This document shows positions 8,483-22,688 of a stretch of 22,688 nucleotides of DNA, one piece after another (the stretch's first letter is position 1; each line of letters opens with the position of its first letter). This DNA is from Candidatus Nanohaloarchaea archaeon (GTDB taxonomy: Archaea; Nanohalarchaeota; Nanosalinia; Nanosalinales; Nanosalinaceae). A program made the position numbers and the translations under genes. The notes beneath the pieces were generated by a model. It was not told the origin of the DNA. It saw nothing but the letters and a program-made list of their open reading frames with translations, and made no database searches. Where the stretch lies: NCBI GenBank assembly GCA_042218075.1, contig JBDGRK010000020.1:1-22688 (forward strand), read 5' to 3'.

Positions 8483-11400
8483 ATGCCTGATGGAATGGAA
8501 CAGCAGATGGAATCGGGAGACCACAGAGAGATATCTGTGGCAGAGTTCTTCGAGAAGAACAAGCACCTTCTTGGTTTCGAAAACGCACAGAAATCGATTA
8601 TCACTGTTGTGAAGGAGGCGGTCGACAACTCTCTGACTTACTCAACGCCTTTCGTGTATAGAAAGGATGGGGAGACTGTACATGGGAAGATAGGTTCTGT
8701 TATAGATCGGATGATAGAGGAAAACAGAGAAAACGTTGAGACGAAGAGAGGCGGAGATCTTGAGAAGCTGAGACTGAAAGAGAGGGATGTAGAGTCTCTA
8801 AGCTTTGATACAGAAAGCTACGACTTGGATTTCAAGGATGTAAGCTCGGTTATGCGACATAAAGTGAACAGCGATATATTTGAAGTCGAGACTGAGGGAG
8901 GAAGAAAGGTGGAGCTGACGGACTATCATAGCGTCTTCGTGCTTAGAGACGGTGAAATAGTTTCAGTCGAGACGAGCGAGCTAGAAGAGAACGATTACAT
9001 AGTTATGCCTAAAGAGAGCTGGGGAGGGTCTAATATTAGAGATATAAATATCTTCAAGGAGCTTATGGCGCTTCCTGAGAGCGAGACAGAGGATCTAGGA
9101 CTTTATGAAGTAGAGAGCCTGATAGAGGAGTACAGGAGTCAAATTGAAGAATATGTAGACGAAAAGTATAGACTCCAAGACTTTAGGAAGTGTGATAGAC
9201 TACCGTTTAATATCGCCAGGAGGCTTGATCTGGATAAATCCGAGATTAGAGGATGTAAGATAGGATTCAAGTTAGGTCCAAACAATATACCGGCGGTAAT
9301 TTCGGCTGGTAGAGACTTAGCGGAGTTACTGGGTATATACGCAGCTGAAGGCTCAGTCACCGGAGGCAGGGAGAGGTATGAAAAAGTCTATTTCTCTCTT
9401 GGAAGCCATGAAAAAAAGTTGATTGATCATGTTGAAGCCTTGGTAGAAAGAGTATTTGGCCTGGAGCCCTCAACCGTGGACGCCCATGAATCTGCAGTAA
9501 ACGTTACAGTTAATTCAAAGGCCGCCGGCCTGGTCATGGAAAATGTATTCGGAATAGAGAACAGGGCTGACGAGAAAACTCTTCCACGTTTTGTCCTGGA
9601 TCTCTCTTCAGATCTCAGGGAGAGGTTCTTTATAGCCTATGCGGCCGGAGACGGCTATCCTACTGAGGAGATTATACCTGTGCTGAGAGATGGAGGAGAT
9701 ATAAGCGATGTAGCTGTAAACAAGATAACAGTTTCTTCTTCCTCCAGAATGCTCTCATCAGGTATGAGATATCTGCTTTCTTCAATAGGGATTGATTCGA
9801 CAGAGGAAAGAGCAGAGCCAGAGAACAGAACTGTAAAAGGAGAAGAAACAGAGTTTGGCGAGTCCTTCCTTGTCCATGTGAGAACTGGAGATACATCATA
9901 TTCAAACAGATTACCGGCTGAAGAGGTACTGGAGAAAGTAAGCAGTCCGAAACTGGAATACAACCTGGAGAATAGAAATCAGCAAAGGGTAGGGGCTTCT
10001 ACAGTTCTCAAAATGAAAGGTGAAAAGAAAGTAGAGTTTAAGGAAGAGGGTCTGAAGATAGCAGAAAGCGATCTGACCGCGGTCCCGATAAAATCGATTG
10101 AAAAGATAGAGTATAACCGGGAATGGGTATACGATGTTTCAGTGCCGGGTGATGAGAACTTTATGGCAGGAAATCACCCTCTCGCATGCCACAACTCGCT
10201 GGACGCATGCGAGGAAGACGAGATACTTCCGGAGATACACGTTCTTATTGACGAGATAGGAGACGACAAGTGCAGGGTTGAGATAAGGGATAACGCGATA
10301 GGACTCGACAGGCAGACGATACCCAAAGTCTTCGGTAAGCTTCTCTACGGATCAAAGTTCCACAAGCTACAGCAGTCGCTTCTTCCCGATCAGAAAGTAT
10401 TGGTTCGTAAGGACGGAGATGTGCAACTGGTGGAGATAGGACAGCTATGTGATGAACTTATAGAGTCTGAAGAAGGTGATAAAACGGCGAAGATAGATCA
10501 GAAAATTGAAGCACCGTGTTTCAAAAGAGCAACCGGCGAAGTTGCATGGAGAGATGTTACGCACGCTATTAGGCACGAAAATAGACATGAGACGTTCAGA
10601 ATTGAAACCTCTAGAGACAGGGAAATAGAAGTAACAGGGAACCACAGTTTGTTTGGGCTGACTAAAGAAGGTGAGATAGAAGAGATAGAGGCCTCTGAAC
10701 TGGGGGAAGGAGATTCAGTGCTATCTCCTCAAAAGATTCCGAATAAAGGAGAGAAAAATTCTCTCAATATTTTATCTCAATTTAAAGCAGATGAGATAGA
10801 AGAAATGCGCTGGTATGTATACGGTGTTTCAGAGGAAAAGCTCCAAGTAATCAAGAAGAAAGGGGAGAAAGTTAGGAAGAAACCATCGCCGGAGTCCAGG
10901 AAAAGAACCTACTATCGATATAAAGGAGTTGACATCCTAAAGGATAGCCTGGAACAGAATTACTTGGAAAAGAACTATCTGCCGGCTGAAAAGCTTCTCA
11001 GACTTGGATGGGAGGATAAAGTAGAGAACGGAAAGCTAAGAACCTATCAGGTGGGAGGGAATGAAAAAGAGATACCATTGAAAATTGATCTGGACTCAGA
11101 ATTTATGAGGTTCTTAGGACTTTTCGCTGCTGAAGGCCATGTGGACGAAAGACAGGCAGGTTTCACATTCGGCAGTCATGAGCAAGAATTTGTTTCAGAA
11201 GTAAGGCAGACTGCTGAAGATAAACTACAGATCTCAACAACTATGAACAAGAGAGAGGGTAATTCGACCAGAGTCAAGATCTTTGGAAGTCCTATTGTCA
11301 AGTTAATGGAGAAACTTTGTGGCAGAGGCGCTCAAAACAAGCATGTCCCGAACTTTGTGTTTGAAACATCGGAATGCAATCAGAAATCGTTCTTAAAGGG

Positions 11401-13333
11401 ACTTATAGATGGAGATGGAAGCACATCGCATCCCGGAAATGAGGTAAGCCTAACTTCAACCAGTAAAAGAATGGCTCAGCAAGTTTCATACCTTATTAAC
11501 ATGCTTGGTGTTGTCGCAAGCTGGAAGGAAAGAAGAAATGACTCCAACATATCGGGAGGAGAGACAGTCACCTATGATGTGCTTGTTCACGGGGAGGATT
11601 TAGAAGTACTAGACTTCGGGCATGACACAGAGAGAAAATCAAAGTACAAGATGCTGCCAGCAGAATTAATGGAGGATCTAAGAGTTAAGGAAGTAAATGC
11701 GATGAGAGTAAGATCAAACAAGGCAGGTCTGTACTATGCTGCAGGATTAGGAAGTAAGCCTCAGTTCTCAAAGAAATTCGTTGAAAAGGTGGAAAAGATT
11801 AAATCACGTGAAGAAGTGGAGGAGGACTACTATCTGAAAGAGTTAAGGAACAGAGGGCTTGTCGAACAGAAAAGTCTCACAAATAAGATGCAGAAGATAG
11901 AGGAAAGAGTTGAGAAGCTACTTGAATTCAGTGAATCCGATCTATGTCTATTGGATGTAAAAGAGATTGAAAAGACGAAATCTCCTGAATACGTCTACGA
12001 TATATCAGTTCCGGGAACGGGAAAAGATGAGAACTTTATAGCAGGCAACCAGGGGGCTCTTTGTGTCAAAAACAGCAGGGGCCAGCAGGGGATCGGAATT
12101 TCCGCCTCCGCGATGTATGCTCAACTTACTGCCGGAGAGCCCGTGACTGTATACTCCAAGATGGAGGGAGAGCCCTGCCACAAGTTTGTGGTGAGGATCG
12201 ACACAGAGGAGAACGAGCCGGAGATAATTGAAGACGAGGTTATAGAATCCGATTCAGAGGAGTTTCCGGGCGATAAAGACTACTACTTTGATCACGGAAC
12301 AACGATAGAAATGAATATAGAGGCCAAGTACACGAAAGGCCACCACTCCGTAAGGAACTACCTGAAGCACACCGCGATCATGAATCCCTACGCGAGAGTA
12401 GTTTTGAGAGAGCCAGACGGAAACAAGATAGAGTATCCAAGAGTCTCTAAAGAACTTCCAGAGAAGCCGAAGGAGATAAAGCCGCATCCTCACGGCGTGG
12501 AGCTGGGAGTAATGATGAGGATGATGGAGAATACAGATGCCAGAACTATCTCATCCTACCTACAGCAGGAGTTTACAAGGGTTGGGAGAACATCAGCGGA
12601 GGAGATATGTGATGAGGCTGAGATTGATACGGGCAGAAGACCTAACACGATGGACAAAGACGAGATAGAACAGCTTTTAAACGCTGCACAGAATGTAAAA
12701 CTGCAGAGTCCGCCGAAGGACTGTCTTTCTCCTATCGGAGAGGATCTAGTATTGAAGGGATTGAAGAAAGAGCTCAACCCGGAATTCTCCACCGCTATAA
12801 CAAGGAAACCTACAGTTTATGGCGGGAATCCGTTCCAGGTGGAAGTGGGACTTGCATGGGGAGGCGACATCGAGGAAGAGGGAAGCTACGATGAACTGAG
12901 GTATGCTAACAAGGTTCCCCTCCTCTACAAGAAATCTTCTTGCGTTACTACCAAAGCGATTGAGGAGGTATCATGGAACCGCTATAATGTCTCACAGGCA
13001 GGTGAGCGACCCCAGGGACCTCTCTACATACTAGTGCACATAGCCTCGGTCTGGGTTCCATTTACTTCAGAAGGAAAGGAGGCTGTAGCCAACTACGACC
13101 CGATCAGGAAGGAGATGAAGCTTGCGCTGCAGGAGGCGGGAAGGAAGCTCGGGAGATACATCGGAAGAAAGGAGAGGAAAGAGATACAGGAGAAGAAGAG
13201 AAGACAGTTAACCTCGTACGCGAAGGAGATGGGTCCGGCGATAGCAGAGCTTGCGGGAGAGGGAGACCCTGAAGAGATAGAAGACAAAATCCAGGAGATG
13301 GTCGAAAACGACTACAACCCTGAACAGCTTTAG
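8483..13333 (+). CDS. top6B: DNA topoisomerase VI subunit B precursor containing two inteins (mature protein about 528 aa from ATG 8483)
   Basis: Exteins rejoin as EISVAEFFEKNKHLLGF...KEAVDN|SLDACEE...LLYGSKFHKLQQ|SRGQQGIGISA..., followed by KPHPHG and RYANKVPL. Adjacent to top6A. Confidence 0.97.
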   Translation: MPDGMEQQMESGDHREISVAEFFEKNKHLLGFENAQKSIITVVKEAVDNSLTYSTPFVYRKDGETVHGKIGSVIDRMIEENRENVETKRGGDLEKLRLKERDVESLSFDTESYDLDFKDVSSVMRHKVNSDIFEVETEGGRKVELTDYHSVFVLRDGEIVSVETSELEENDYIVMPKESWGGSNIRDINIFKELMALPESETEDLGLYEVESLIEEYRSQIEEYVDEKYRLQDFRKCDRLPFNIARRLDLDKSEIRGCKIGFKLGPNNIPAVISAGRDLAELLGIYAAEGSVTGGRERYEKVYFSLGSHEKKLIDHVEALVERVFGLEPSTVDAHESAVNVTVNSKAAGLVMENVFGIENRADEKTLPRFVLDLSSDLRERFFIAYAAGDGYPTEEIIPVLRDGGDISDVAVNKITVSSSSRMLSSGMRYLLSSIGIDSTEERAEPENRTVKGEETEFGESFLVHVRTGDTSYSNRLPAEEVLEKVSSPKLEYNLENRNQQRVGASTVLKMKGEKKVEFKEEGLKIAESDLTAVPIKSIEKIEYNREWVYDVSVPGDENFMAGNHPLACHNSLDACEEDEILPEIHVLIDEIGDDKCRVEIRDNAIGLDRQTIPKVFGKLLYGSKFHKLQQSLLPDQKVLVRKDGDVQLVEIGQLCDELIESEEGDKTAKIDQKIEAPCFKRATGEVAWRDVTHAIRHENRHETFRIETSRDREIEVTGNHSLFGLTKEGEIEEIEASELGEGDSVLSPQKIPNKGEKNSLNILSQFKADEIEEMRWYVYGVSEEKLQVIKKKGEKVRKKPSPESRKRTYYRYKGVDILKDSLEQNYLEKNYLPAEKLLRLGWEDKVENGKLRTYQVGGNEKEIPLKIDLDSEFMRFLGLFAAEGHVDERQAGFTFGSHEQEFVSEVRQTAEDKLQISTTMNKREGNSTRVKIFGSPIVKLMEKLCGRGAQNKHVPNFVFETSECNQKSFLKGLIDGDGSTSHPGNEVSLTSTSKRMAQQVSYLINMLGVVASWKERRNDSNISGGETVTYDVLVHGEDLEVLDFGHDTERKSKYKMLPAELMEDLRVKEVNAMRVRSNKAGLYYAAGLGSKPQFSKKFVEKVEKIKSREEVEEDYYLKELRNRGLVEQKSLTNKMQKIEERVEKLLEFSESDLCLLDVKEIEKTKSPEYVYDISVPGTGKDENFIAGNQGALCVKNSRGQQGIGISASAMYAQLTAGEPVTVYSKMEGEPCHKFVVRIDTEENEPEIIEDEVIESDSEEFPGDKDYYFDHGTTIEMNIEAKYTKGHHSVRNYLKHTAIMNPYARVVLREPDGNKIEYPRVSKELPEKPKEIKPHPHGVELGVMMRMMENTDARTISSYLQQEFTRVGRTSAEEICDEAEIDTGRRPNTMDKDEIEQLLNAAQNVKLQSPPKDCLSPIGEDLVLKGLKKELNPEFSTAITRKPTVYGGNPFQVEVGLAWGGDIEEEGSYDELRYANKVPLLYKKSSCVTTKAIEEVSWNRYNVSQAGERPQGPLYILVHIASVWVPFTSEGKEAVANYDPIRKEMKLALQEAGRKLGRYIGRKERKEIQEKKRRQLTSYAKEMGPAIAELAGEGDPEEIEDKIQEMVENDYNPEQL
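8630..10195 (+). mobile_element. Intein 1 in Top6B (522 aa) with a LAGLIDADG homing endonuclease
   Basis: Starts SLTYSTP; block B LTDYHSVF; block C LLGIYAAEGS; block E AYAAGDG; block F VYDVSVPGDENF; ends CHN followed by extein Ser. Confidence 0.95.
10376..12073 (+). mobile_element. Intein 2 in Top6B (566 aa) with a LAGLIDADG homing endonuclease
   Basis: Starts SLLPDQK; block B VTGNHSLF; block C FLGLFAAEGH; block E FLKGLIDGDG; block F VYDISVPG...ENF; ends VKN followed by extein Ser. Confidence 0.95.
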
Positions 13334-13451
13334 AGGCGACATACTATGAGAAAAACGAAGACAAAACTTCAGAGAAGTTTATTGCAAAAGATTCAAGTGA
13401 ATCTTAGAATCAGAGATATTCTCGAGGTCAGAAACATGAGGTGTATCTGAA

Positions 13452-14582
13452 GTGCCGAAGAAAGACTTAGCCAACGACGAATCCACGCTTGACAAACTAA
13501 CCCATCTGGGACAGAAACTCAGAAGGCAACTGGGAGACCCGGAAGAGGACAACCTGACTATCGAGACACAGGTGAGAAGCAAGTCAAATGTTGAGTTCGA
13601 CGAGGAAGAGGGAAGACTCTCACTTGGAGACTCGTACTCGACAAGGAAGTTCCTCAACATAAGCCATGCGAGAAAGTTCATGCAGACCACGATGGTTGCG
13701 AACAAGGCGAAGGAGCTGGTGGAGTCCGGAAGAACTGCATCGATCAGAGAGGTCTACTACCAGCTGAAGCACTCTGTACCCGGACTCGACGAGAACACGT
13801 TCGAGGACCAGGACGAGTCGAATAATGTTGTGGTGGATATAGAGACCGCTACAGGCGCCATCAGGGAGGATCTACATCTCTTTGCGGAACCGAAGGGAAC
13901 GCTTTTCGGCCCTGTCGTGATAAACGACTCTGGAGACTCGATCGACTGCATGAACATGGGAACTTCGGGACTCTCGATTCCCTCGATTGTCGACCACTAC
14001 GAGTTCGAGGAGTGCGATGCGGATTTTGTGCTAGTGGTAGAGACAGCCGCGATGGTAAACAGGCTTGTTGAAGAGGATTTCCACAAGGAACACAACGCAA
14101 TAATTCTTGGAACAGGAGGCCAGCCGGCGAGAGGAGCCAGAAGATTGATCAACATAATGCACAACCGCCTCGATCTTCCTGTCTATGTGTTCACGGACGG
14201 TGATCCCTGGGGTTACTACATCTACTCCGTGCTGAAGTCAGGGTCAATGTCGCTGGCGTTCCAGTCGGACAGACTCGCGACTCCGGAAGCCAAACTGGTA
14301 GGCATGACGATGGAGGACATCGAGGAGTACGACCTCCACCATGTGACTGAAGACCTGAAAGGCAAGCCGGAGGACTCAGGTGGGCCTACTAAAGACTTCA
14401 AGAGGATCCAGGACGTTATGGAGTACGACTGGATGCAGAAGGAAGAGTGGCAGAAACAGTTCCAGAAGATGCTCGACATGGGAGTAAGGGTAGAACAGCA
14501 GGCTCTAGCCGCCAACTCTCTGGAATTCGTTGCCAACACTTATCTGCCTGAGAAGATTGAGAACAAGGAATTCCTGGACTAG
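13452..14582 (+). CDS. top6A: DNA topoisomerase VI subunit A
   Basis: Motifs SIREVYY (catalytic Tyr), FEDQDESN, LVVET, GQP, FTDGDPWG, EQQAL. SD GAGGTG at 13438-13443 before the GTG start. Confidence 0.97.
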   Translation: MPKKDLANDESTLDKLTHLGQKLRRQLGDPEEDNLTIETQVRSKSNVEFDEEEGRLSLGDSYSTRKFLNISHARKFMQTTMVANKAKELVESGRTASIREVYYQLKHSVPGLDENTFEDQDESNNVVVDIETATGAIREDLHLFAEPKGTLFGPVVINDSGDSIDCMNMGTSGLSIPSIVDHYEFEECDADFVLVVETAAMVNRLVEEDFHKEHNAIILGTGGQPARGARRLINIMHNRLDLPVYVFTDGDPWGYYIYSVLKSGSMSLAFQSDRLATPEAKLVGMTMEDIEEYDLHHVTEDLKGKPEDSGGPTKDFKRIQDVMEYDWMQKEEWQKQFQKMLDMGVRVEQQALAANSLEFVANTYLPEKIENKEFLD

Positions 14583-14623
14583 AAGTTTAAAAGATTCGGC
14601 AACTTTTTGCCTTTATATTACCT

Positions 14624-14788
14624 GCCCAGATAGCTCAGTAGGTAGAGCGCCACGCTGTTAACTCCGCCTTTCTCTCGAGAAAGGTGGTTGAGAAAATCTC
14701 TGATCTTCGACTGCAGCTTTCTTGGTGAAAGCTGCTTGATAGGTCGACAGTTACGTGGTGGTCCCAGGTTCGAATCCTGGTCTGGGCG
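14624..14788 (+). tRNA. tRNA-Asn(GTT) with a 92-nt intron at 37/38 (intron 14661-14752)
   Basis: Acceptor GCCCAGA/TCTGGGC plus G; D arm GCTC/GAGC; anticodon stem CCACG/CGTGG; spliced loop CT-GTT-AA; T arm CCAGG-TTCGAAT-CCTGG. BHB central helix CTGT/ACAG with a TTA bulge. Confidence 0.95.
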
Positions 14789-14823
14789 TCACTCGGCTTG
14801 TTGAACGTCTTCTTGTAGAACTG

Positions 14824-14831
14824 TTTAAGTA
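14824..14831 (+). promoter_or_regulatory. TATA box of the integrase
   Basis: TTTAAGTA about 24-31 nt before ATG 14855. Confidence 0.45.
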
Positions 14832-14854
14832 CCGAACCGAGGCCAACTATAATC

Positions 14855-16111
14855 ATGGGAGACGTTCACAACCGGAAAAAGAACCTGCAAAACACGTTAA
14901 ACAAGATCAGGGAAAACCCTGAACTATCCGAAGAAAACACGAAACTGCTGATAGAATTCAAGGATCACCTGCTCGCGGAAAACATTTCAGTAGAAAGAAC
15001 CTGCCGCTACATGAGCTCATGGAACACATTAGCACCTTTATTCGATTTCTCACTGGAAAACGCGGATAAGAAAGACCTGAAAAAACTGGTCGGGAAAATC
15101 AACCAGGATCAGATCAACGGAAAAGACTATAGTGTGTGGACCCTGGCCGAGTTCAAGAAAGCAGTACGGAAACTATACACGTACCTGGAAGGTGAGGAAG
15201 AACCCGAGCTTGTCGACTTTGTATCCGTCAACGTGAAAGAAACCGACAAACCCCGGACGGATCCATCTGAATTACCACGGCCCTCGGACGTCAAATCCAT
15301 GCTTAAACACGCATCCAATAACAGAGATAGGGCTTTAATCTTTTTCACATGGGATACAGGCGGTAGAATATCAGAAATCCTTAACGTGAAATGGAAAGAT
15401 ATAGAGTTTGGTGAAAACCTGACAAAAGTAAGATTCAGGGAATCCAAGACAGGTGAGAGAAAAGTACATATCCGTGAAAGCGTTGAAACAATTAAACAAT
15501 GGAAACAGGAATCGCCGAACACGGAACCGGACGACTACGTGTTTATCACGTTGAAAGGTTACGGTGAAACCGAGAAAGGCGACCAGATGCCATACAGTAC
15601 CGCCTCACAGATATTCAAGCGTCTAGGGGACGGTGCGGAGCTTGAATGCAAGTATAATCCTCATGCTTTCAGGAAAGGCAGAGCTACGAACATGGCGGGG
15701 CAGGGAATGAATCAGGCGCAGCTATGTGAATACTTTGGATGGGTGCAGGGATCAGACCAGGCCGCAACTTATATCCGTATGGCAGAGCAGGACCTGGAGA
15801 AAGCTGTAAAACAGATTCATGGCCTTGAGGAAACTGAGGAAGAGAAAGAGGATCTTTCTCCTAAGACGTGTGCGTCCTGTGATAGTGTGAATCCTGGTTA
15901 CCGGGATCAATGCAAGGAATGCGGCAACGCCATAACCGAGGACGTGGATAAAGTGATCGAGATGAAAGAGGAAGAGGTAACCAATGAGGTGAAAACGGAT
16001 ATTGTCGAGGAACTGTTTGACAAGATGGGGATGGACCAGGATGAAAGAGAACAGTTTATGGACCGGAAAATGGAGGAAAAGGTAAGTGAAATGGAGTTTT
16101 TCCAGCAGTAA
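14855..16111 (+). CDS. Tyrosine recombinase/integrase with a C-terminal Zn ribbon
   Basis: Catalytic set R (DTGGRISEIL), K (SKTG), HxxR (HAFR), W (FGW) and Y (ATYI); then CASC...CKEC. Confidence 0.95.
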   Translation: MGDVHNRKKNLQNTLNKIRENPELSEENTKLLIEFKDHLLAENISVERTCRYMSSWNTLAPLFDFSLENADKKDLKKLVGKINQDQINGKDYSVWTLAEFKKAVRKLYTYLEGEEEPELVDFVSVNVKETDKPRTDPSELPRPSDVKSMLKHASNNRDRALIFFTWDTGGRISEILNVKWKDIEFGENLTKVRFRESKTGERKVHIRESVETIKQWKQESPNTEPDDYVFITLKGYGETEKGDQMPYSTASQIFKRLGDGAELECKYNPHAFRKGRATNMAGQGMNQAQLCEYFGWVQGSDQAATYIRMAEQDLEKAVKQIHGLEETEEEKEDLSPKTCASCDSVNPGYRDQCKECGNAITEDVDKVIEMKEEEVTNEVKTDIVEELFDKMGMDQDEREQFMDRKMEEKVSEMEFFQQ

Positions 16112-16156
16112 AGGGTTAGATTTGTATATCTTGAGGAGATTATTAGAGAAGTAAAT

Positions 16157-16294
16157 TTGACCGATGTCTTGCAGAATGATAAAGTTGAAAGCAGAAAAGA
16201 TTTAGGATTAATACTTGCAGAGTTTATGAAAGAACAGGAAGTTGCAGATATATTTGATGTAAGCCAACAGGCGGTGAATGACTGGAAGAAGTGA
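16157..16294 (+). CDS. Small HTH protein (45 aa), possible excisionase or regulator, in frame with the integrase
   Basis: From TTG 16157: MTDVLQNDKVESRKDLGLILAEFMKEQEVADIFDVSQQAVNDWKK. QEVADIFDVSQQAVNDW is a classic HTH pattern. Start uncertain; not in the ORF track. Confidence 0.65.
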   Translation: MTDVLQNDKVESRKDLGLILAEFMKEQEVADIFDVSQQAVNDWKK

Positions 16295-16304
16295 GATTGT
16301 AATG

Positions 16305-16321
16305 AAGTTGTTAGACAACTT
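16305..16321. promoter_or_regulatory. Inverted repeat, putative operator or arm-type site
   Basis: AAGTTGT-tag-ACAACTT perfect 7-bp inverted repeat, overlapping a TTGTACAA palindrome, in intergenic DNA. Confidence 0.4.
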
Positions 16322-16388
16322 GTACAACGTAAATGTAAGTCCATGTTTCGATCGCTACAAGTATGCGCATAATAAGAGGTGAATATCC

Positions 16389-16709
16389 ATGTCAGAAAAA
16401 CAGAAAATCTTAATCGGGAAAAAGAATTCGATTGGATTAACCAAGACAATTGAGAAAGTGAGTTCAAGCAATTTTGAGAGTGAGACTGATGTAATCAAGT
16501 ACCTGGATCAAGTACATGGGAAAGGAGAATACACTTTAACCTGGAAGAAGTTTACTGCATTCAGGAAGCTGTGGCAGGGCGAGCTTCGAGAGGTGCCTGC
16601 GGAAAACCGCCTTGAATACAGGACATACGACACCAACGAACTCGAAAGTTTGGGAATCAAACAAGTTACCCTGCCGGATTCTGACTGGGTAGTAATCGAA
16701 AAAACATAG
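16389..16709 (+). CDS. Hypothetical protein
   Basis: 106 aa with a strong SD (GAGGTGA) at 16376-16382; less acidic than host proteins. Confidence 0.75.
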   Translation: MSEKQKILIGKKNSIGLTKTIEKVSSSNFESETDVIKYLDQVHGKGEYTLTWKKFTAFRKLWQGELREVPAENRLEYRTYDTNELESLGIKQVTLPDSDWVVIEKT

Positions 16710-16799
16710 TTGAATTATCGCCTTCACACGCGTGACGCACATACCGGATTCCATCATATAGACATACCTTGCTGCATTTTGCTAACCGGACAAACTGTT

Positions 16800-16808
16800 A
16801 AAAAAAAA
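16800..16808 (-). terminator. Oligo-T terminator of the leftward operon
   Basis: A9 on plus (T9 on minus) about 30 nt downstream of the last minus-strand gene. Confidence 0.5.
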
Positions 16809-16837
16809 GAGTGAAATGAAAGAAGGTTGAATTGGAG

Positions 16838-17191
16838 TCAGGCGTTGATCTCTGCATCCACTTCGACGTGTTTCTCGGCCAGGGCAAAGAACTGATCCGT
16901 CACTTTGTCGCAGTCAAGGTTATGCATGCATTCCGTGCAGTAAACCAGTTCAGGTCCTGGAATAGCGTTCGTGACGAATGTAAAGAATTTCCTGTCTTCT
17001 AATACGTTGTCTCCGCAGTTGTGACAATCTGCTTCTTCAATTTCCAGTTGCACGCTTTCTTTCCAGACAGAGACAGTGTATCCTCTGGCCTGCAGCACTT
17101 GAAGATTTTTAATTGATTCTTCTGGGAAATCTTCTAGTTCGCCTGATTTGAGTTCGTCTATCGACGCTACCGTGTTTTCGAACTGTTTCAT
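16838..17191 (-). CDS. Hypothetical Zn-binding protein
   Basis: CHNC...CTEC motifs; ATGA coupling with the upstream gene. Confidence 0.75.
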   Translation of the reverse strand: MKQFENTVASIDELKSGELEDFPEESIKNLQVLQARGYTVSVWKESVQLEIEEADCHNCGDNVLEDRKFFTFVTNAIPGPELVYCTECMHNLDCDKVTDQFFALAEKHVEVDAEINA

Positions 17192-17382
17192 GGTTTCTCA
17201 CCTTTCTCGGAGTAGTATATTTTCTGGCTGTCTTCAATTTTGTAGCTGATGTCAGGGTAGTTGATCAAGCTCGCCATGTTTTTGTCTACCGTGGATTTGC
17301 TTAATCCTGTTTCTTCCACGATCTCTTCCTTTGTCAACGGTCCTTTTTCCTTTAGAAGTTTTGAAACCGAGTTCATACTCAT
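17188..17382 (-). CDS. Winged-helix DNA-binding protein
   Basis: LLKEKGPLTKEEIVEETGLSKSTVDKNMASL; ATGA overlaps on both sides. Confidence 0.8.
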   Translation of the reverse strand: MSMNSVSKLLKEKGPLTKEEIVEETGLSKSTVDKNMASLINYPDISYKIEDSQKIYYSEKGEKP

Positions 17383-17768
17383 TTCGGAATATTCACCCTT
17401 TCGAGTACGGATTCGCCTAGAGAGTTTATCTGGTAGAATATCCGCCGGTCCTCGATACCTTTCTTTTCGATCAAGTTGTATTTTTTCAGTTTATTTAAGT
17501 GGTAGTAGACTTTGGATTTGCTCATGTCAAGATCCTTGGCTATACTGTAGACATAGTCTTGGTTCTGCAGATGTGCCAGTATTTTTCTAGTGCTTCTATT
17601 CCCGATTTTCCGTGCTATCAGATCCGGATCTAGTTTTTCACTGTTTTGTTCTTGCTTTCCCTTGCCTTTTCCGTTATTTCTTACTTCCTGACTATCATTT
17701 GATCTTTCAATTTCTCCATAAGTTTCACCGTAATTTGACCCTTCCTTTTGACTCCTTGAATTCTTCAT
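17379..17768 (-). CDS. ArsR-like winged-helix transcription regulator
   Basis: STRKILAHL...YSIAKDLDMSKSKVYYHLNKLKKYNLIE...YQINSLG. Confidence 0.85.
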   Translation of the reverse strand: MKNSRSQKEGSNYGETYGEIERSNDSQEVRNNGKGKGKQEQNSEKLDPDLIARKIGNRSTRKILAHLQNQDYVYSIAKDLDMSKSKVYYHLNKLKKYNLIEKKGIEDRRIFYQINSLGESVLERVNIPK

Positions 17769-20700
17769 TCAGCTCTTCACCTCGGCTTCAACTTTCCATT
17801 TTCCATTATCTCTTTTTGCCAAATCTCTTTCTTCAAGAGAATTAAGAATCTCTCCCGCTTTTTCTATTTCTATCCCTGTGGATTTTGACACTTTATGAGA
17901 TCCTGCTTTAGGATAATGTTTGATGAATTTGAGGACCCTTTCTACCTGTTCATCAAGATCATCTACTGAGGATATTGAGGATATTGAAGATATTGAGGAG
18001 TTTTCAGTATGCTCAGTAGATTCAGAGGGATGATTTTTACTACTATCTTGATTTTCATTGTCAACAAGATCATCAATATATTCGGTTAAATTATAGCGAG
18101 TCATTGAATCCTTGAAAGTAGTCTTATCGATCTCCAAACAAGTATACCCTTCCTGATCCTTAACCTTCATGCTATCAGACCGTATAAGGTCATAATCCCT
18201 CAACCTCTTCCCAACTCCCTGACTAGAAAGCTGATAATCCTCACTTCTGTCCAATTCCTCATTAACATATTCTGCAAGGTCCTGGAATCTTATTCTTATC
18301 TGATCGGCTTCTTTATCATTAAAATCGAGAATTATTTTATCCAGAATTGTCTGAACGGTTTTCGATATGTCAGATACGCCGCTTATATCCTCTTCTTCCT
18401 TTATTCTCGACTTAAGCTTGGTAGCCCTATCTTCCCCTTTGAAATATTTGAGAATTCCGCAGAATAATGCTATCTTATCAGCCTCTCTTCCAGATACATT
18501 CAACTTATCTCGATAACTGGAAACTTGATCGGTAATTTTTTCCCAGTTAAATAATGTGAACGCCGATATATGATTTCTCAGTTGTTGAGCCTCCCCCTTA
18601 TTCTCCATTTCGATCTTTGCAGGATCGTCCATATCCTCATCCGTCCTGACAGTTTTTAGGAAGACGCACCTGCTTTCAAAACTGTCAGCCCAACCCTTGA
18701 TACTGTTTGCACTAATCTTCTTAGGATTGAAGCTGTATATTGAAGTAATCTGGTCTTCGATTCCAACCCTATCAGGATCCGCGATTGGATAACTACCGTT
18801 TTTCCTGTATCCTGAATTAAATAATTGCTCAGTATCGCTTCTTGATTCCTCACTTCCTTTCTCAGTTTCCTCGAGATTGAGGCTGGCCTGGAAGCTATGA
18901 GCGAATCGTATACTGGCCTTTGGAGTACCAACATTAGGTCCCAAACCGTTGTATTCAAGCCAAGAGGAGGCAAGTTGAAGATTGGTTTTTCCTGTATCTG
19001 GTTCACCGTGAAGGTATAGATAGAAAGTATACCCTATTGGCGTGATCAAGTATGTGTGGACAATATAAGCGGCGATTAAATCATACCATTCTTCGTGGTA
19101 ATGATTCCAATAGCGTTTGATAAACTCAATTATTTCATCAAATAACTGTTCCTTGTTCTTGATTTGGTCAGGATTTTTGACCAGTTTTATAACCTGGTTT
19201 GTGGGAGCTCTGATCTGTGGAGCGGGCTTGTCCGCTATTTTGTGCTTGAATTGAACTTCTTCATCGTTCAGGTTTATATAGTCATAATCTATTGCCTGCT
19301 TGTCTTTCTTTGGTACTTCCTTCCATTTTCCCTGCTCTTCCAACTCAATCTTTCGTTCAGATTTCTTATTTCTTATTTGCTTGATCTGTCCATCACTTGT
19401 TATTATTGCCTTACGGAATCTTCCTCTTTCTTGATCGTATATCCATATTGTCTGGAAGAAAGTTCCATTGACTACTCCGGTCAGCCTTTTTTTCACTGGT
19501 TGCTTTGCCTCGGCAAGTTGGTCAATTTTCCCCTCCCAACTCTGATCATACTGAGAATATTGCTCAGTATTCTCAATATCTTCAATATCTTCAGTAGATT
19601 CCGCTCTTAATTCTTTAAGTTCGTCTTCAAGTTTGGGTTTTTTGACAGGCAACTTCGTGAGTATAGGATCTATATCTATATCTGACCAATCTTTCACTAG
19701 GTTAAGAACCTCTTTACACTTCTCACCTTGTTTCCTATTGTCTGCATTTTTAGCCTCTTGAATTAGTTGATCTAGGAAAGTTTTTGCATCTTCAATCAAT
19801 CCTGTCAAATCATATCCGTTTTCACTGGTCCAGTCATCAAGATCCATGCCCTCTGGCAGGTCAATCATGTACGGGTTCACACCGTTTTCAAGTAGTAATT
19901 CCGCTGTCTTTCTCTGTCCTTTCTGCCCTGGACCGTCCTGATCCATGGCTATATACACATTTTCAGCGTGCTGAACTCTTTCAACCACTTTCTCAACTTC
20001 TTTATTTGAAAACCGTGTGGTGACAGGGCTGACAACTGTAAAACCTGCCTTATTGGCGCTTATTGAATCCGTAATGCCTTCGGTAATAAACACTCCGTCT
20101 TTCTCACCTTGAAGCTCGTACGGAGTGTTTTTGATGTAATCAGTCGTGTAGTTCTTCTTGTACTTTGCATCGCTATCGCTCCCCGGCAACCTTCTGCCGA
20201 TAGTGAATACGGTTCTATTACCTTGAAGGTAGGGCCATATTATCCGGTTTTCTAAATGTGAATAAAGTTCACCATCTTCGCTTTGCCCGAAAAACCCTGA
20301 GTCTAGAAGAGCTTGCTTATCAAAACGCTGTTTCAATATTTCGATGTCGTCAGATGTAGGTATTCCGGGCCTTGATTTTTCAATATCCTCTTCTTCAAAA
20401 CTTCTTCTTTCCTTAATATCTTCCAATATATCGGAGTGCCTCTTTTTCAAGCTGTCATGCGCTAATTCTGTTGCTTTGGTCAGAACTTGAATCGCTTTCT
20501 GCTTCCTGTCGACATCTTCTTTGTCAACATCTTTGAACTCTTCAGGAAAGTGTTCTTTTAACCATTCAACTGCCTTATCAACTGAATTCCATCCCTTTGT
20601 GTGCATGACTAAAGTCGCTGGACTCTCTCCACCTTCTCCGTGGCATGCAAAGTGGCTTCCGTGGTAAACCGACAGATCGCCGGTATCCAGGTCGCATTCA

Positions 20701-20780
20701 GGACAGTAATAGTCTGTTCTGTCACTGTATCTACCTTCTACTTGCAAATCCAGTTCTTCAGCTATTTGTTTCAAGTTCAC
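17769..20780 (-). CDS. Replication protein: Zn finger + DnaG-like TOPRIM primase + P-loop ATPase/helicase (DUF3631-associated type) + C-terminal wHTH
   Basis: CPEC...ACH; ENRIIWPY, IGRRL and KY (DnaG catalytic core); ITEGITDSIS, AMDQDGPG and DLDDW (TOPRIM); GEPDTGKT (Walker A), LNLEETE (Walker B-like), FNSGY, FESRC, GREAD; KRLRDYDL; terminal helix-turn-helix-wing. Confidence 0.85.
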   Translation of the reverse strand: MNLKQIAEELDLQVEGRYSDRTDYYCPECDLDTGDLSVYHGSHFACHGEGGESPATLVMHTKGWNSVDKAVEWLKEHFPEEFKDVDKEDVDRKQKAIQVLTKATELAHDSLKKRHSDILEDIKERRSFEEEDIEKSRPGIPTSDDIEILKQRFDKQALLDSGFFGQSEDGELYSHLENRIIWPYLQGNRTVFTIGRRLPGSDSDAKYKKNYTTDYIKNTPYELQGEKDGVFITEGITDSISANKAGFTVVSPVTTRFSNKEVEKVVERVQHAENVYIAMDQDGPGQKGQRKTAELLLENGVNPYMIDLPEGMDLDDWTSENGYDLTGLIEDAKTFLDQLIQEAKNADNRKQGEKCKEVLNLVKDWSDIDIDPILTKLPVKKPKLEDELKELRAESTEDIEDIENTEQYSQYDQSWEGKIDQLAEAKQPVKKRLTGVVNGTFFQTIWIYDQERGRFRKAIITSDGQIKQIRNKKSERKIELEEQGKWKEVPKKDKQAIDYDYINLNDEEVQFKHKIADKPAPQIRAPTNQVIKLVKNPDQIKNKEQLFDEIIEFIKRYWNHYHEEWYDLIAAYIVHTYLITPIGYTFYLYLHGEPDTGKTNLQLASSWLEYNGLGPNVGTPKASIRFAHSFQASLNLEETEKGSEESRSDTEQLFNSGYRKNGSYPIADPDRVGIEDQITSIYSFNPKKISANSIKGWADSFESRCVFLKTVRTDEDMDDPAKIEMENKGEAQQLRNHISAFTLFNWEKITDQVSSYRDKLNVSGREADKIALFCGILKYFKGEDRATKLKSRIKEEEDISGVSDISKTVQTILDKIILDFNDKEADQIRIRFQDLAEYVNEELDRSEDYQLSSQGVGKRLRDYDLIRSDSMKVKDQEGYTCLEIDKTTFKDSMTRYNLTEYIDDLVDNENQDSSKNHPSESTEHTENSSISSISSISSVDDLDEQVERVLKFIKHYPKAGSHKVSKSTGIEIEKAGEILNSLEERDLAKRDNGKWKVEAEVKS
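17964..18027. repeat. 9-bp-period repeat cluster A (4 forward + 2-3 inverted TAYTGAR units)
   Basis: TACTGAG 17964, TATTGAG 17973, TATTGAA 17982, TATTGAG 17991; inverted TTCAGTA 18003, CTCAGTA 18012, degenerate TTCAGAG 18021. Confidence 0.85.
19549..19601. repeat. 9-bp-period repeat cluster B (1 forward + 4 inverted TAYTGAR units)
   Basis: TACTGAG 19549; inverted CTCAGTA 19563, CTCAATA 19572, TTCAATA 19581, TTCAGTA 19590. Shares TCAGTAGATTC with cluster A. Confidence 0.85.
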
Positions 20781-20899
20781 ATTATCAGACTCATAGTCTT
20801 TTCAGTTTCAACTGGTTTTTCGCTGCAACTGCATTGACCCATATTCTCACGGTCGCTCCAGTATTCTTGACCGCATTCTTTGCATTTCCAGAGAATCAT
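20777..20899 (-). CDS. Small Zn-finger-like protein (40 aa)
   Basis: MILWKCKECGQEYWSDRENMGQCSCSEKPVETEKTMSLIM; SD GAGGTGA; TGA overlaps the primase GTG. Not in the ORF track. Confidence 0.7.
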   Translation of the reverse strand: MILWKCKECGQEYWSDRENMGQCSCSEKPVETEKTMSLIM

Positions 20900-21039
20900 G
20901 CTTTCACCTCTCCCGTCTGTATGATTTCCTCTTTAAAGCAAAAAGGACACAAATCCCGATGGGTCACTTCTTGAAGCCACCAAGCCACCAAAAATTCTTC
21001 ATCCAATCTCAAGTCGCAGCTGCGGCATCGGTAGTTCAT
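20896..21039 (-). CDS. Small Zn-finger protein (47 aa)
   Basis: MNYRCRSCDLRLDEEFLVAWWLQEVTHRDLCPFCFKEEIIQTGEVKA; ATGA overlaps on both sides. Not in the ORF track. Confidence 0.75.
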   Translation of the reverse strand: MNYRCRSCDLRLDEEFLVAWWLQEVTHRDLCPFCFKEEIIQTGEVKA

Positions 21040-21221
21040 TCTACCCCATCCTCTTTGTAGTAGTTGTCTATGATTTCACGGAGCTTTTTGCTGGCGTTTC
21101 CTGTTTCTTGAAGCTTCTCAAGCTGGTCTTCTCCAATGTAAAACGTTTTCTCTGTCTTCTCACGTTCAATAGAATCGGAGTTCTTGTAGAACTTCTTTTC
21201 AACAGCCAGTTCTTGAACCAT
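21036..21221 (-). CDS. Ribbon-helix-helix-like DNA-binding protein
   Basis: KTFYIGEDQLEKLQETGNASKKLREIIDNY fits a strand-helix-helix pattern. Confidence 0.7.
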   Translation of the reverse strand: MVQELAVEKKFYKNSDSIEREKTEKTFYIGEDQLEKLQETGNASKKLREIIDNYYKEDGVE

Positions 21222-21318
21222 CTTGTGTCACACCGCTTTCGCCTGGACCGTTGCCGCGGTCCGTTTCTTTGATTTTATTTCTGAATGATTCTCGGAGGTA
21301 TTCCTCTACATCCTTCAT
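21199..21318 (-). CDS. Possible 39-aa hypothetical protein
   Basis: ATG directly after the upstream TAG; MKDVEEYLRESFRNKIKETDRGNGPGESGVTQDGSRTGC fills the operon gap. Confidence 0.4.
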   Translation of the reverse strand: MKDVEEYLRESFRNKIKETDRGNGPGESGVTQDGSRTGC

Positions 21319-21492
21319 CTATGCTTCAGCCTCCGCGACTGGTTTAATTCCAAGTTCCTTTTCCAGCTGGTTTAACTGCCTCATAAGACCTCTGCGACCG
21401 ATTTCCGATTTAGCCATACCTGTCTCCTCAACTATCCGGTCGAGTCTTTCTTCCAACTGGTCTGGGATTTGAATGTGGAAGTGATTGTTCAT
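21319..21492 (-). CDS. CopG/RHH-family DNA-binding protein (57 aa)
   Basis: MNNHFHIQIPDQLEERLDRIVEETGMAKSEIGRRGLMRQL is a canonical RHH pattern. Not in the ORF track. Confidence 0.8.
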   Translation of the reverse strand: MNNHFHIQIPDQLEERLDRIVEETGMAKSEIGRRGLMRQLNQLEKELGIKPVAEAEA

Positions 21493-21555
21493 GGTTTGTC
21501 AACCTCTGATCTGGGTCGGTAAAAGATTAGACCCACTTTTAAACACCAGTGAAAT

Positions 21556-21572
21556 TTATAACACCGTTATAA
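21556..21572. promoter_or_regulatory. Inverted repeat, putative operator upstream of the replication operon
   Basis: TTATAAC-acc-GTTATAA perfect 7-bp inverted repeat in an AT-rich gap upstream of the CopG-like gene. Confidence 0.45.
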
Positions 21573-21777
21573 CTATTTTTTGGAGAGACGCGAAACTCTG
21601 AAAACCAGTTATAGAGCTTTTTCAACCAGGTAACTAGGCCTGTTTTATAAGTAGATTTTTCAGGTTCAAACTTAACAACGACAATGCCAGCAATCTGCTT
21701 ATCCACCTTATCAGACGATTTCTTTTTGCCGTTAAACTCAAAATCGCTGTTACCGCCGTTTACTACCCTTTCAGGTT

Positions 21778-21921
21778 TCAAAGTTGTTCCGCTCCTTTCA
21801 GGAAGGCTTCTCTGAATACTTCTCCTGGGCTCATGTCTTTTTCCTTTGCTTTCTGCCGAGCTGTTCTTTCCACCTTTTCATCGATCAGCCACGGTGCCTC
21901 TTTCAACGTGTCGTAGCTCAT
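21778..21921 (-). CDS. RHH-like protein (47 aa)
   Basis: MSYDTLKEAPWLIDEKVERTARQKAKEKDMSPGEVFREAFLKGAEQL; starts 6 nt after the upstream stop. Not in the ORF track. Confidence 0.65.
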   Translation of the reverse strand: MSYDTLKEAPWLIDEKVERTARQKAKEKDMSPGEVFREAFLKGAEQL

Positions 21922-21927
21922 GGAAAA

Positions 21928-22272
21928 TCACAGCTCCGACTGCAGAAGCGCATCCACAATGTTGGTTTCTGTCACATCCTCTTCCTTGGCTTTTTCCCTC
22001 AGTTTTTCACGAGCTTCTCTGGATAGAGCAAACGTTTTTTTCTTCAAAGCTGGGTCTTCTCTTTTAGGGTTCTGCGGTTTCACCATGTTAACTGTGGCTG
22101 AATTGCAGTAAGTGCCTTCCTGGTGGTACTCAAGCAGGTCATCAACCCGGCTTTTGTCTTCTAGGTCCATGGCGATTATCCGGTTGCATACGTTGCAGAT
22201 TACGTTGAATGTGGCGTTTTCTTGGTTTTCAACTAGTCCTGGCGGAATGTTTTCGTGGTTATCGGAACTCAT
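21928..22272 (-). CDS. Zn-finger + RHH fusion protein
   Basis: CNVC...H...C followed by KKKTFALSREAREKLREKAKEEDVTETNIVDALL; ATG 22272 preferred. Confidence 0.75.
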   Translation of the reverse strand: MSSDNHENIPPGLVENQENATFNVICNVCNRIIAMDLEDKSRVDDLLEYHQEGTYCNSATVNMVKPQNPKREDPALKKKTFALSREAREKLREKAKEEDVTETNIVDALLQSEL

Positions 22273-22338
22273 GGAATACACACCTATACTTATATATACT
22301 TATTTCCCTTTAAATATCGTATGGATTTATACACATAC
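22273..22338. promoter_or_regulatory. Divergent promoter region between two RHH genes
   Basis: TATA-like TATATATAAG (minus) near 22289-22298 and TTTAAATA (plus) at 22309-22316; repeated ATACAC/ATAC units. Confidence 0.55.
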
Positions 22339-22488
22339 ATGGTGACAGATGACTCTGAACGAAAGAAAAGAGTGAATATAACACTTGGAGAAAAACACCT
22401 AGAAGCAATTGAAGAAGAGGCTCTTAACCTTTCCAAATTCGTACGTAAAAGAATCGAACAAAAATACCCAGAATACTTTAAGGATTAA
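22339..22488 (+). CDS. RHH DNA-binding protein (49 aa)
   Basis: MVTDDSERKKRVNITLGEKHLEAIEEEALNLSKFVRKRIEQKY; start moved to ATG 22339. Confidence 0.8.
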   Translation: MVTDDSERKKRVNITLGEKHLEAIEEEALNLSKFVRKRIEQKYPEYFKD

Positions 22489-22500
22489 AGAGTCAAATCA

Positions 22501-22688
22501 ATGTTTTCTGAAAAAAACGGCAATATAAAAGCCCTATACTTGATAATCGGTATTTTCGTAATAGGAGGGTTTCTCAATTTTGCGATAACACCGACCGTTA
22601 CCAGCGATACCTATGAAGATAAACACATAAAACTGGAGTTTCCTTTAGGCTTCCACGAAGAAGAAGCGGAACCTGGTCTGAAACAGTA
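22501..22688 (+). CDS. Membrane-anchored or secreted protein, N-terminal fragment (runs off window end)
   Basis: MFSEKNGNIKALYLIIGIFVIGGFLNFAITPTVTSDTYEDKHIKLEFPLGF...; open to the window end with one TM or signal helix. Confidence 0.65.
   Translation, partial: MFSEKNGNIKALYLIIGIFVIGGFLNFAITPTVTSDTYEDKHIKLEFPLGFHEEEAEPGLKQ

Follow-up and report, generated by a model that had tools for sequence, protein, structure and literature searches.

The window analysed here is the whole of contig C13 (JBDGRK010000020.1; 22,688 bp) of a Candidatus Nanohaloarchaea archaeon genome (GCA_042218075.1; 1.10 Mb, 40 contigs, 92% complete). Its right-hand part belongs to what is probably a nanohaloarchaeal mobile element, inserted by its own tyrosine integrase at the 3′ end of a tRNA-Asn gene and replicating as a circle by means of a single protein, Rep, that would combine the functions of initiator, primase and helicase. 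This reading draws on the integration site with its attachment (att) repeats and the corresponding empty site, on the predicted folds of the two halves of Rep and the conservation of their catalytic residues, on the exchange of primase and helicase parts among relatives, and on a circular relative of about 9 kb. One-protein primase-helicase initiators on tRNA-integrating elements are a known kind; what is new is the combination of a primase predicted to be of the cellular bacterial DnaG type, an as yet unnamed MCM/Cch-like helicase and an archaeal host of the DPANN group. Coordinates of all features are collected in Table 1.

The tRNA-Asn gene used as the integration target contains an intron, and the blank returned for it by ARAGORN under default settings is therefore a false negative. 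The integrase gene begins 66 nt beyond the tRNA end, on the same strand. The 13-nt attL core at the end of the tRNA gene has a single other copy in the genome, an identical 13-mer on the minus strand of contig C26 (G000:C26:16585-16597). In the reconstructed attP the core is surrounded by a 12-bp inverted repeat: one arm is GGCTTGTTGAAC, and its complement is found on C26, 9 nt inside attR. Of 2000 shuffles, a single one contained an inverted match of at least 12. The repeat is probably the core-binding site of the integrase and, because it flanks the core on both arms, the end of C26 can be assigned to the same element. Past attR, C26 is host-like, with genes for a NUDIX hydrolase and a large membrane protein.

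The junction was checked by comparing the window with contigs from four public runs, the comparison being confined to contigs. One contig of run X1 stops precisely at 14789. A contig of run X2, which stems from a different study, continues past 14789 with 255 letters unlike the window, the first 30 of which correspond to C26:16584-16555 with 0 mismatches. The latter contig is the empty site, with the tRNA end joined to the C26 flank; the element is probably absent from part of the natural population. An intact tyrosine recombinase beside attL, direct repeats at both borders and an empty site identify a tRNA-targeting integrative element. A preliminary description of this DNA had already proposed an integrative element; it overlooked the tRNA-Asn gene and the att sites.

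As the window is an entire contig ending at 22688, the element runs off its end. It consists of window positions 14790-22688, an unassembled gap, and C26:19374-16598; summing the assembled parts and leaving out the gap, it measures at least 10.7 kb. The small low-GC contigs C3, C5 and C32 were considered for the gap and rejected, having neither a Pfam match nor a link. Contigs C29 and C25 were discarded as gap fillers, since they carry unrelated genes (reverse transcriptase, AAA_5, PIN). The circular form of this element was not seen in the contigs compared. In run X1, word depth is 11.5-12.2 for host-side contigs as against 3.7-6.4 for element contigs; roughly half of the cells may carry the element, but we give this figure no weight because contig depth sums over strains.

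The N-terminal 400 residues of Rep are predicted to be a DnaG primase of the bacterial cellular type, with zinc-binding and RNA-polymerase domains. Pfam models recognise Toprim_2 (1e-11) and, just below threshold, DNAG_N (2e-5; 25.1 bits for a cut-off of 26), while TIGR01391 (dnaG) is matched at 1.6e-24 with 86.5 bits, far below its equivalog cut-off of 283.6. DnaG chains in the PDB match Rep down to 4e-11, and the NRIIWPY, GRR/KY, EG..D and DxD sequences, which the preliminary description had read, next to a zinc finger, as a bacterial-style DnaG core and a TOPRIM domain, pair with the motifs of solved DnaG structures. An AlphaFold2 model built on 31 sequences has a predicted local distance difference test score (pLDDT) of 90.6 and superimposes on Aquifex DnaG with a Z score of 25.2 (371 residues aligned), the catalytic cores of the B. 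subtilis, M. tuberculosis and E. coli enzymes following at 24.6, 22.9 and 21.7. The phage T7 and T4 primases and Twinkle reach only 12.6-13.8, so that the primase of Rep resembles the DnaG of bacterial cells more closely than it does the phage enzymes. The model displays the RNA-polymerase core with N-terminal subdomain and the acidic Toprim fold of bacterial DnaG; of the Toprim residues, E234, D280, D313 and D315 are the same in all 31 sequences and D282 is kept in at least 90%. The CHC2 zinc ribbon (PF01807) has no match in Rep at E<=0.01, and matches the relative P0003 at 7.4e-7. Residues 1-90 of the model align with the zinc-binding domain of B. stearothermophilus at Z 8.3 and present the ligand pattern CxxC...CH. 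No Pfam domain corresponding to the C-terminal DnaB-binding domain of DnaG occurs in Rep; a fused helicase stands there instead. The host's own archaeal DnaG-like gene is separate and lies on contig C36.

Modelled with AlphaFold2 on 37 sequences, the following module has an N-terminal domain rich in beta structure; its P-loop core shows a beta hairpin ahead of core strand four and is accompanied by a helical lid and by a winged helix. Foldseek searches of the PDB returned MCM (6.6e-8), SCCmec Cch (3.4e-7) and SaPIbov1 Rep (8.6e-6). A search independent of Foldseek gave the same picture: M. kandleri MCM (3f8t) scored Z 17.4 over 262 residues, other MCMs 13.3-16.1, and Cch (5dgk_B) 16.2 over 270 residues spanning model residues 31-403, N-terminal domain included; MoxR-like and chelatase ATPases came next, and superfamily 3 (SF3) helicases reached only 8.8-10.4. 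The model thus has the N-terminal domain, lid and winged helix of an MCM-type AAA+ protein as well as the Cch-like fold, and lacks an SF3 core. Among the predicted viral structures of BFVD, an uncultured tailed phage supplies the best match, a toprim protein of 947 residues (E 7.5e-20 over 552 columns). Other toprim and DUF927 proteins come after it, several DUF927 proteins matching at 5e-9 to 1.2e-7. The ATPase motifs are Walker A GEPDTGKT and Walker B LNLEE, in which E638 is invariant in 14 of 14 full-length relatives and in all 37 module sequences; the Walker A Lys, an Asn and the Arg of an "SR" motif, placed by eye like the arginine finger of MCM, are likewise invariant.

Sequence comparisons leave this module without a family. 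In Rep it matches no Pfam family at E<=1, DUF927, D5_N/DUF5906 and MCM (PF00493) included. The 37 module sequences share no family among the matches listed (25 of 65 families); PF00493 does not appear for them among these matches, and two of the 37 touch DUF5906, with a best E of 0.095. A PDB sequence-profile search with the helicase alignment yielded only P-loop noise (best E 0.25). From the modelled structure we would class the module with the MCM/Cch-like helicases, as a divergent family of sequences that has yet to be named. Of the preliminary claim of an ATPase with an atypical Walker B followed by a winged helix-turn-helix, the LNLEE motif is confirmed; the ATPase is however not unclassifiable, being an MCM/Cch-like helicase for which Pfam has no model. 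Structure prediction and fold comparison for each half of Rep, in line with what that description had recommended, returned DnaG and an AAA+ helicase. Neighbours in the ESM Atlas, unnamed clusters labelled bacterial or Uroviricota (one quarter of one cluster with DUF3631), were retained as a lead only.

The distribution of the modules supports a helicase role by another route. A word-indexed search found 7 close relatives only; exhaustive searching recovered 82 cluster representatives (E<=1e-30). Of 158 proteins sorted with five module queries, 86 (clusters at 50% identity) contain the helicase module: 30 together with the zinc/DnaG module, 4 with only the N-terminal part of P0046, and 52 with none of the other four queries. 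Among 29 proteins scanned with Pfam, P0046, P0054 and P0104 carry Prim-Pol, an archaeo-eukaryotic primase (AEP) domain, and six helicase-only proteins have no family at all. Conversely, homologues of the primase (42-53% identity) are fused to other helicases, namely D5_N+DUF5906 (P0022, L002) and an MCM P-loop (L016, L023). That a module stands where known helicases stand was the argument used to propose DUF927, DUF3987 and VirE as helicases (PMC5862659), and the same modular exchange supports a helicase role for the unnamed module. Of 70 species genomes of the phylum, 4 have the helicase module and 8 the primase part; all belong to one family, and the spread is patchy.

Some of these relatives deserve description for their setting. 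L002 (IMG/VR, 1-20485) belongs to a 30-kb tailed-virus contig on which portal, terminase and HK97-type capsid genes occur together with three for tRNAs; the primase encoded there is 42% identical to that of Rep. L016 (G053:C1:215000-234999), from a complete nanohaloarchaeal genome, carries, in the stretch 12082-18542, a 1059-residue fusion of zinc ribbon, Toprim and MCM P-loop downstream of tRNA-Gly(TCC) and of a 325-residue open reading frame (ORF) in integrase position without Pfam match, with two P-type metal ATPase genes further on; L020, from the genus of the window's genome, has the same layout. Three haloarchaeal plasmids of 10.8-23.7 kb (L003, L004 and L005; CP002990, NZ_CP034690 and NZ_CP100453) encode "hypothetical" giants of 1246-1764 residues, whose DnaG-like part is 29-34% identical to Rep; in two of the three, Pfam finds DNAG_N and nothing else.

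No full-length relative of Rep covering at least 80% of the query was found among 50,697 phage records or 72,556 plasmid records. A pattern scan of genome contigs produced no relative, and scans of viral contigs with P0046 and P0054 produced one primase-only locus and nothing, respectively. The closest named relative of Rep is labelled Candidatus Nanohaloarchaea. A circular relative is L029 (9,107 bp), whose ends overlap by 99 bp; a circularly permuted version of it, 99.5-99.8% identical, is L030 from another assembly. The circle of about 9.0 kb encodes a Rep that is 35% identical over residues 1-921, together with small ribbon-helix-helix (RHH) and winged helix-turn-helix (wHTH) proteins; Pfam finds no integrase, ATPase or capsid gene in it. 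About 1.8 kb of L029 (1543-3322) is devoid of a convincing ORF and might serve as non-coding RNA or as origin.

Within rep, two arrays of 9-bp repeats mirror each other. Together they make up a 45-nt inverted repeat, 82% complementary, with arms 1549 nt apart, and they encode the low-complexity linkers that flank the helicase module. Mirrored arrays are present in 6 of 6 helicase-family DnaG-Rep genes whose DNA was compared and in 0 of 8 DnaG-Rep genes with other helicases. Array scores are 21-40 in five of the six genes, against a maximum of 13-15 in codon shuffles (30 each); the sixth gene, in L024, has 3+3 units with one mismatch per unit. The units vary among elements (GAGGATATT, GAGGATACT, GAGGATACG, ACTGAGCAA, AGTGAACCT), and the two arms of one gene agree: complementarity is 24-27 of 27 positions within a gene and 13-23 of 27 between genes; the exceptions are L024 and L029, whose arrays are nearly identical, and the window and L007, which form a close pair. 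At the protein level, tripeptide pairs readable as each other's antisense (TEQ/SAQ and others) were found in 7 of 21 proteins with at least two tripeptide repeats, one helicase-only protein included, compared to 8.4% of random unit pairs. This test undercounts: P0002 fails it though its DNA (L007) has arrays. Two unrelated peptides encoded as mutual reverse complements go beyond selection at the protein level, so that a constraint on DNA or RNA, or concerted evolution, must act. The linkers of relatives (alignment A2, columns ~480-500 and 1060-1080) are tandem tripeptides that vary by protein, TEQ, NEP, NEA and MQQ in one set and SAQ, GSS, SAS and ATS in the other; several helicase-only relatives have two different tripeptide arrays side by side after the module. 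Matches to C/D-box RNAs inside rep (sR6, E 0.2; sR38, E 0.08) are far below gathering scores and were dismissed as chance.

From these comparisons we tentatively suggest, at somewhat less than even odds, that the two co-varying inverted arrays are iterons of the replication origin. In phage lambda the origin lies within the linker-coding middle of the initiator gene O, so that iterons inside such a gene have a precedent; there they form one compact cluster, as opposed to two mirrored candidate clusters 1.55 kb apart. The Reps of Staphylococcus pathogenicity islands (SaPI) bind short, oppositely pointing repeats through their C-terminal winged helix (PMC9371898). A fuller version, which we regard as speculative, is that of a split origin carried by the initiator gene: both arrays would be candidate iterons for Rep winged helices, written into linker-coding stretches; the linker peptides EDI/SSI, TEQ/SAQ and SEP/GSL would be by-products of the DNA signal; co-variation of the arms would set replicon specificity; and one hexamer would load at each array, the two facing opposite ways. 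Were the arrays iterons, they would offer a clean case of a DNA signal dictating the sequence of a protein linker.

The arrays may instead have nothing to do with an origin and reflect gene conversion between inverted repeats, recombination joints for helicase modules, or pairing in mRNA or single-stranded DNA. We rate this explanation as possible and rather doubtful. Speaking for it, the arrays sit exactly at both borders of the module that is swapped among relatives; in L029 and L033 complementarity continues into the non-repeated inner flanks; L024 and L030 have identical 34-nt stretches at both arrays while the surrounding genes are at most 69% alike over a short piece; and opposite-strand tripeptide pairs also occur in the helicase-only protein P0038, and side by side in P0054. 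Yet fast-slipping repeats 1.5 kb apart should diverge without selection, and the arms co-vary across genes of 28-57% protein identity. An inversion between the arrays would wreck the reading frame, and none of 10 listed joints falls at the arrays, all 10 lying between 13819 and 14981 (a count on contigs, which rare forms may escape).

Coming back to the element as a replicon, we envisage that Rep finds the origin through its winged-helix domain or domains and, needing no loader, forms an MCM/Cch-type ring helicase that moves 3′ to 5′. The N-terminal DnaG domain of bacterial type would lay RNA primers, to be extended by the polymerase and clamp of the host, and the small RHH and wHTH genes around rep would control copy number and expression.

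Several points count against this picture. The element is incomplete, no overlap of contig ends bridging the gap, and the empty-site contig might derive from a close relative, not from the same strain. The ATPase gene near attR lacks the part for the first 48 residues, Walker A included, and is frameshifted, so that this copy may be decaying and no longer mobile. In Walker B, the Asp expected before E638 is replaced by Glu in Rep and by Ala in P0003. Alignment of profiles (hhalign) with four MCM-type modules of neighbouring elements gave a probability of 0.5%; there being no detectable sequence relation to MCM or to Pfam helicases, the helicase call is built on predicted fold and domain substitution. 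As to the origin, the arrays are 1.55 kb apart, unlike the compact origins of SaPIs, and no further iteron-like clusters occur outside the rep gene, in the window or in L029.

Rep could serve a mobile element in some other task, such as defence, repair or conjugative priming, and leave replication to host factors, the more so as some element-borne primase-helicase pairs are reported to be dispensable for element replication (PMC7693054). We consider this improbable: no large gene other than rep is shared by the 9-kb circle and the integrated copy, Rep retains the initiator-typical order of primase, helicase and winged helix (PMC4889955), and Pfam scans of the assembled parts revealed no other replication gene. 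Less credible still is that the junction of host and element is an artefact of assembly or binning. The genome is in 40 contigs and the element ends at a contig end, which leaves room for such an error; contigs from two public runs and two studies, however, cover host and element sides alike, both arms carry the att core with the inverted repeat that flanks it, and the empty-site contig ties the tRNA to C26 of the same genome.

As to its kind, the element may be plasmid-like, a satellite, or a decaying spindle-shaped provirus. Next to attR, two ATPase fragments (C26:16826-17185 and 17247-17510) are 83% and 54% identical to an intact 276-residue ATPase of L023. Across 78% of its length the intact protein is 30% identical to a protein of Haloferax lemon-shaped virus LSV-48N (2e-27); it also matches Halorubrum spindle-shaped virus BLv25 (3e-6), and no plasmid record. 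The name Zot attached to the broken ATPase (3.7e-6) was rejected as reflecting just the shared domain of P-loop assembly ATPases. The statement of the preliminary description that no capsid genes are visible could not be drawn for the element from the window, as the element continues on C26 with this broken spindle-type ATPase. The right part also contains an SRAP (abasic-site sensor) gene at G000:C26:18418-19083 (L066 6419-7084; Pfam 1.9e-50).

Nanohaloarchaeal spindle-shaped viruses of 21-22 kb, as described in a 2025 preprint, combine a tyrosine integrase with an AAA+ ATPase and with two capsid proteins that are hydrophobic; genes for their replication "cannot be predicted", and satellites pair the ATPase with plasmid replication genes (10.1101/2025.02.15.638363). 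The element might accordingly be a provirus of this type, probably defective, or a satellite like pSSVx or the SRCEs, packaged by viral capsid proteins, in which case Rep would be the replication module that escaped prediction in those viruses. The position of the ATPase fragments beside attR, the report of spindle viruses with integrase and such an ATPase in the same host phylum (10.1101/2025.02.15.638363), and small hydrophobic ORFs at C26:18036-18407 and from window position 22501 onward would all fit. Still, we hold this to be a minority possibility. The fragments are frameshifted and have no Walker A; no capsid protein was identified, the hydrophobic ORFs not having been compared with known capsid proteins; the circular relative L029 has neither ATPase nor capsid gene by Pfam; no spindle-virus record matched Rep in the phage collection of 50,697 records; and the main text of the report on these viruses nowhere mentions toprim or DnaG (10.1101/2025.02.15.638363). 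Should nanohaloarchaeal spindle viruses encode the same Rep, it would supply their missing replication module.

Several known systems resemble this element in part. The nearest by BFVD is the protein of an uncultured Caudovirales phage, A0A6J5Q3V5 (947 residues, "Archaeal primase DnaG/twinkle, TOPRIM domain"), one of the tailed-phage toprim proteins with a DUF927/Cch-like part: the toprim primase comes first and the helicase second, with a TM score of 0.53. Identity is a mere 15%, and Rep differs in having no Pfam DUF927 match and an archaeal host. Phage fusions of DnaG-like primases to DUF927 helicases have been described (PMC4889955). The novelty first claimed for the architecture thus holds for archaea and not for the kind of protein, since tailed bacteriophages have toprim proteins with such a helicase. 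With the Staphylococcus SCCmec Cch and SaPI Rep proteins (5dgk, 8tch, 7ola), Rep shares the MCM-like fold (Cch Z 16.2, SaPIbov1 Rep 12.5, SaPI5 Pri-Rep 11.7), the C-terminal winged helix and residence on an integrated element. SaPI Reps move 3′ to 5′ (PMC9371898). Unlike them, Rep has its primase fused and of DnaG type, there is no detectable sequence similarity, and the candidate iterons lie 1.55 kb apart inside the gene and not just downstream of it.

In phage P4 alpha and D5-type proteins, too, one chain unites a toprim primase with a hexameric helicase and an origin-binding winged helix (PMC4889955), and close relatives of the Rep primase are fused to D5_N+DUF5906; the helicase of Rep, in contrast, is not SF3 (Z 8.8-10.4 as against 16-17) and has no D5_N/DUF5906 match. 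Archaeal and eukaryotic MCM is the best structural match, shares the placement of the "SR" Arg by eye and has DnaG fusions in neighbouring elements (L016, L023), and is set apart by the missing PF00493 match and the low profile-profile probability. Replicases of the pRN1 ORF904 type are likewise single multifunctional Reps preceded by small RHH/CopG-like regulators (PMC4234260), and AEP primase-helicases are matched by the Prim-Pol fusions of the helicase module cited above; the Rep primase, however, is a member of the DnaG family, to which the AEP family is not related. The nanohaloarchaeal DNSV viruses and SRCE satellites have in common with the element the host phylum, a tyrosine integrase and the spindle-virus-type ATPase. 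Their replication genes are rolling-circle endonucleases, AEP primase-helicases or unpredicted (10.1101/2025.02.15.638363), whereas the present element has a broken ATPase, and no capsid gene was seen in it.

A literature search found no report linking nanohaloarchaea to toprim or DnaG primases. For priming, archaeal plasmids and viruses are believed to use archaeo-eukaryotic primases. According to a 2016 survey, DnaG-like primases are, among double-stranded DNA viruses, confined to bacteriophages (PMC4889955). A DnaG of the bacterial cellular type would now appear as the priming part of replicases in nanohaloarchaeal elements and haloarchaeal plasmids, fused to at least three different helicases. 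The helicase module makes up a fairly large family for which Pfam has no model (at least 86 clusters at 50% identity among the 158 proteins examined), and many "hypothetical" proteins of 480-650 residues could thereby receive a name and a function open to testing. To our knowledge vectors are lacking for DPANN archaea, and the 9-kb circular relative with its one-protein replicase is a candidate backbone for a genetic tool.

Table 1. Features of the element and of its integration site (window coordinates)
Feature	Position	Strand	Evidence and remarks
tRNA-Asn(GTT) gene, integration target	14624..14788	+	93-nt intron; Rfam tRNA 57.7 bits, E 1e-10; aragorn -i 14623-14790
attL core CTGGTCTGGGCGT	14777..14789	+	last 12 nt of tRNA plus 1
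GGCTTGTTGAAC, 12 bp	14795..14806	+	one arm of inverted repeat around core in reconstructed attP
Tyrosine integrase, 418 aa, intact	14855..16111	+	Pfam Phage_integrase 2e-24; phrog_1 3.6e-27; C-terminal CxxC...CxxC tail
ORF, 106 aa	16389..16709	+	no Pfam or PHROG match
CxxC...CxxC protein, 117 aa	16838..17191	-	last operon gene; weak phrog_4152 match, 6e-4
HTH protein, 64 aa	17188..17382	-	HTH_9 4.4e-6
ArsR-like wHTH protein, 129 aa	17379..17768	-	HTH_5 2.9e-8
Rep, 1003 aa	17769..20780	-	putative Zn ribbon and DnaG core (residues 1-400), linker 1, predicted MCM/Cch-like helicase with winged helix (~400-925), linker 2, C-terminal tail
Rep helicase module (predicted), residues ~400-940	17961..19583	-	AlphaFold2 model, pLDDT 87.8
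Array 2, 9-bp repeats	17961..18005		TGAGGATAT x3.7 at 17967-17999; encodes linker 2, SSISSISSISSVD
Array 1, 9-bp repeats, inverted relative to array 2	19555..19599		complementary unit x2.3 at 19573-19593; encodes linker 1, STEDIEDIENTEQ
Rep primase module (predicted), residues 1-400	19581..20780	-	AlphaFold model
ORF, 61 aa	21036..21221	-	RHH-like by eye; no family match (Pfam, PHROG)
RHH protein (weak), 57 aa	21319..21492	-	RHH_1 E 0.006; 48% identical to ORF in L021
ORF, 80 aa	21539..21781	-	no family match (Pfam, PHROG)
ORF, 117 aa	21928..22281	-	first gene of leftward block; CxxC motif, RHH-like C-terminus; no Pfam match
RHH-like ORF, 77 aa	22255..22488	+	opens rightward block; no family match
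ORF with N-terminal membrane helix	22501..22688	+	cut by contig end
Part on C26			AbrB-like ORF, two ATPase fragments, Zn-ribbon ORF, 123-aa membrane protein, SRAP gene

An integrase and a coupled leftward operon had been recognised in the preliminary description, and every gene listed there was recovered at its place; the RHH gene of the leftward block exists as described, its family match being merely weak. The integrase matches the XerA model at 4.9e-24, below that model's cut-off, and is 35% identical to the integrase of L026. The leftward operon is tight: the wHTH gene begins one base after rep, and the helix-turn-helix (HTH) and CxxC genes overlap their predecessors by 4 nt each. The wHTH gene directly after rep is kept in relatives, its product being 69% identical in L018 and 41% in L023.

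The host side of the window (1-14582) carries housekeeping genes, namely two for 2-hydroxyacid dehydrogenases and those for NMD3, eIF-1A, a RIO kinase, a KH protein and topoisomerase VI subunits A and B. Subunit B of the latter (8456-13333, 1625 residues) contains two inteins, Pfam detecting two Intein_splicing stretches, LAGLIDADG_3 and Hom_end. A second intron-bearing tRNA gene, Arg(GCG), lies at 2710-2860 and was also overlooked by default ARAGORN; with aragorn -i, 26 of the 37 tRNA genes in the genome have introns, some of the calls being doubtful. A 23-nt motif within the tRNA-Asn intron (14688-14710) has six further copies at 91-96% identity on contigs C23, C37 and C10, five of them inside intron-bearing tRNA genes (Thr, Trp, Pro, Arg and Leu by aragorn -i). 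Finally, the low-GC contig C29 (L071) encodes at 2965-6099 a reverse transcriptase (RVT_1, 1.9e-10) beside an AAA_5 ATPase and large unannotated ORFs, a locus that is possibly a defence island.

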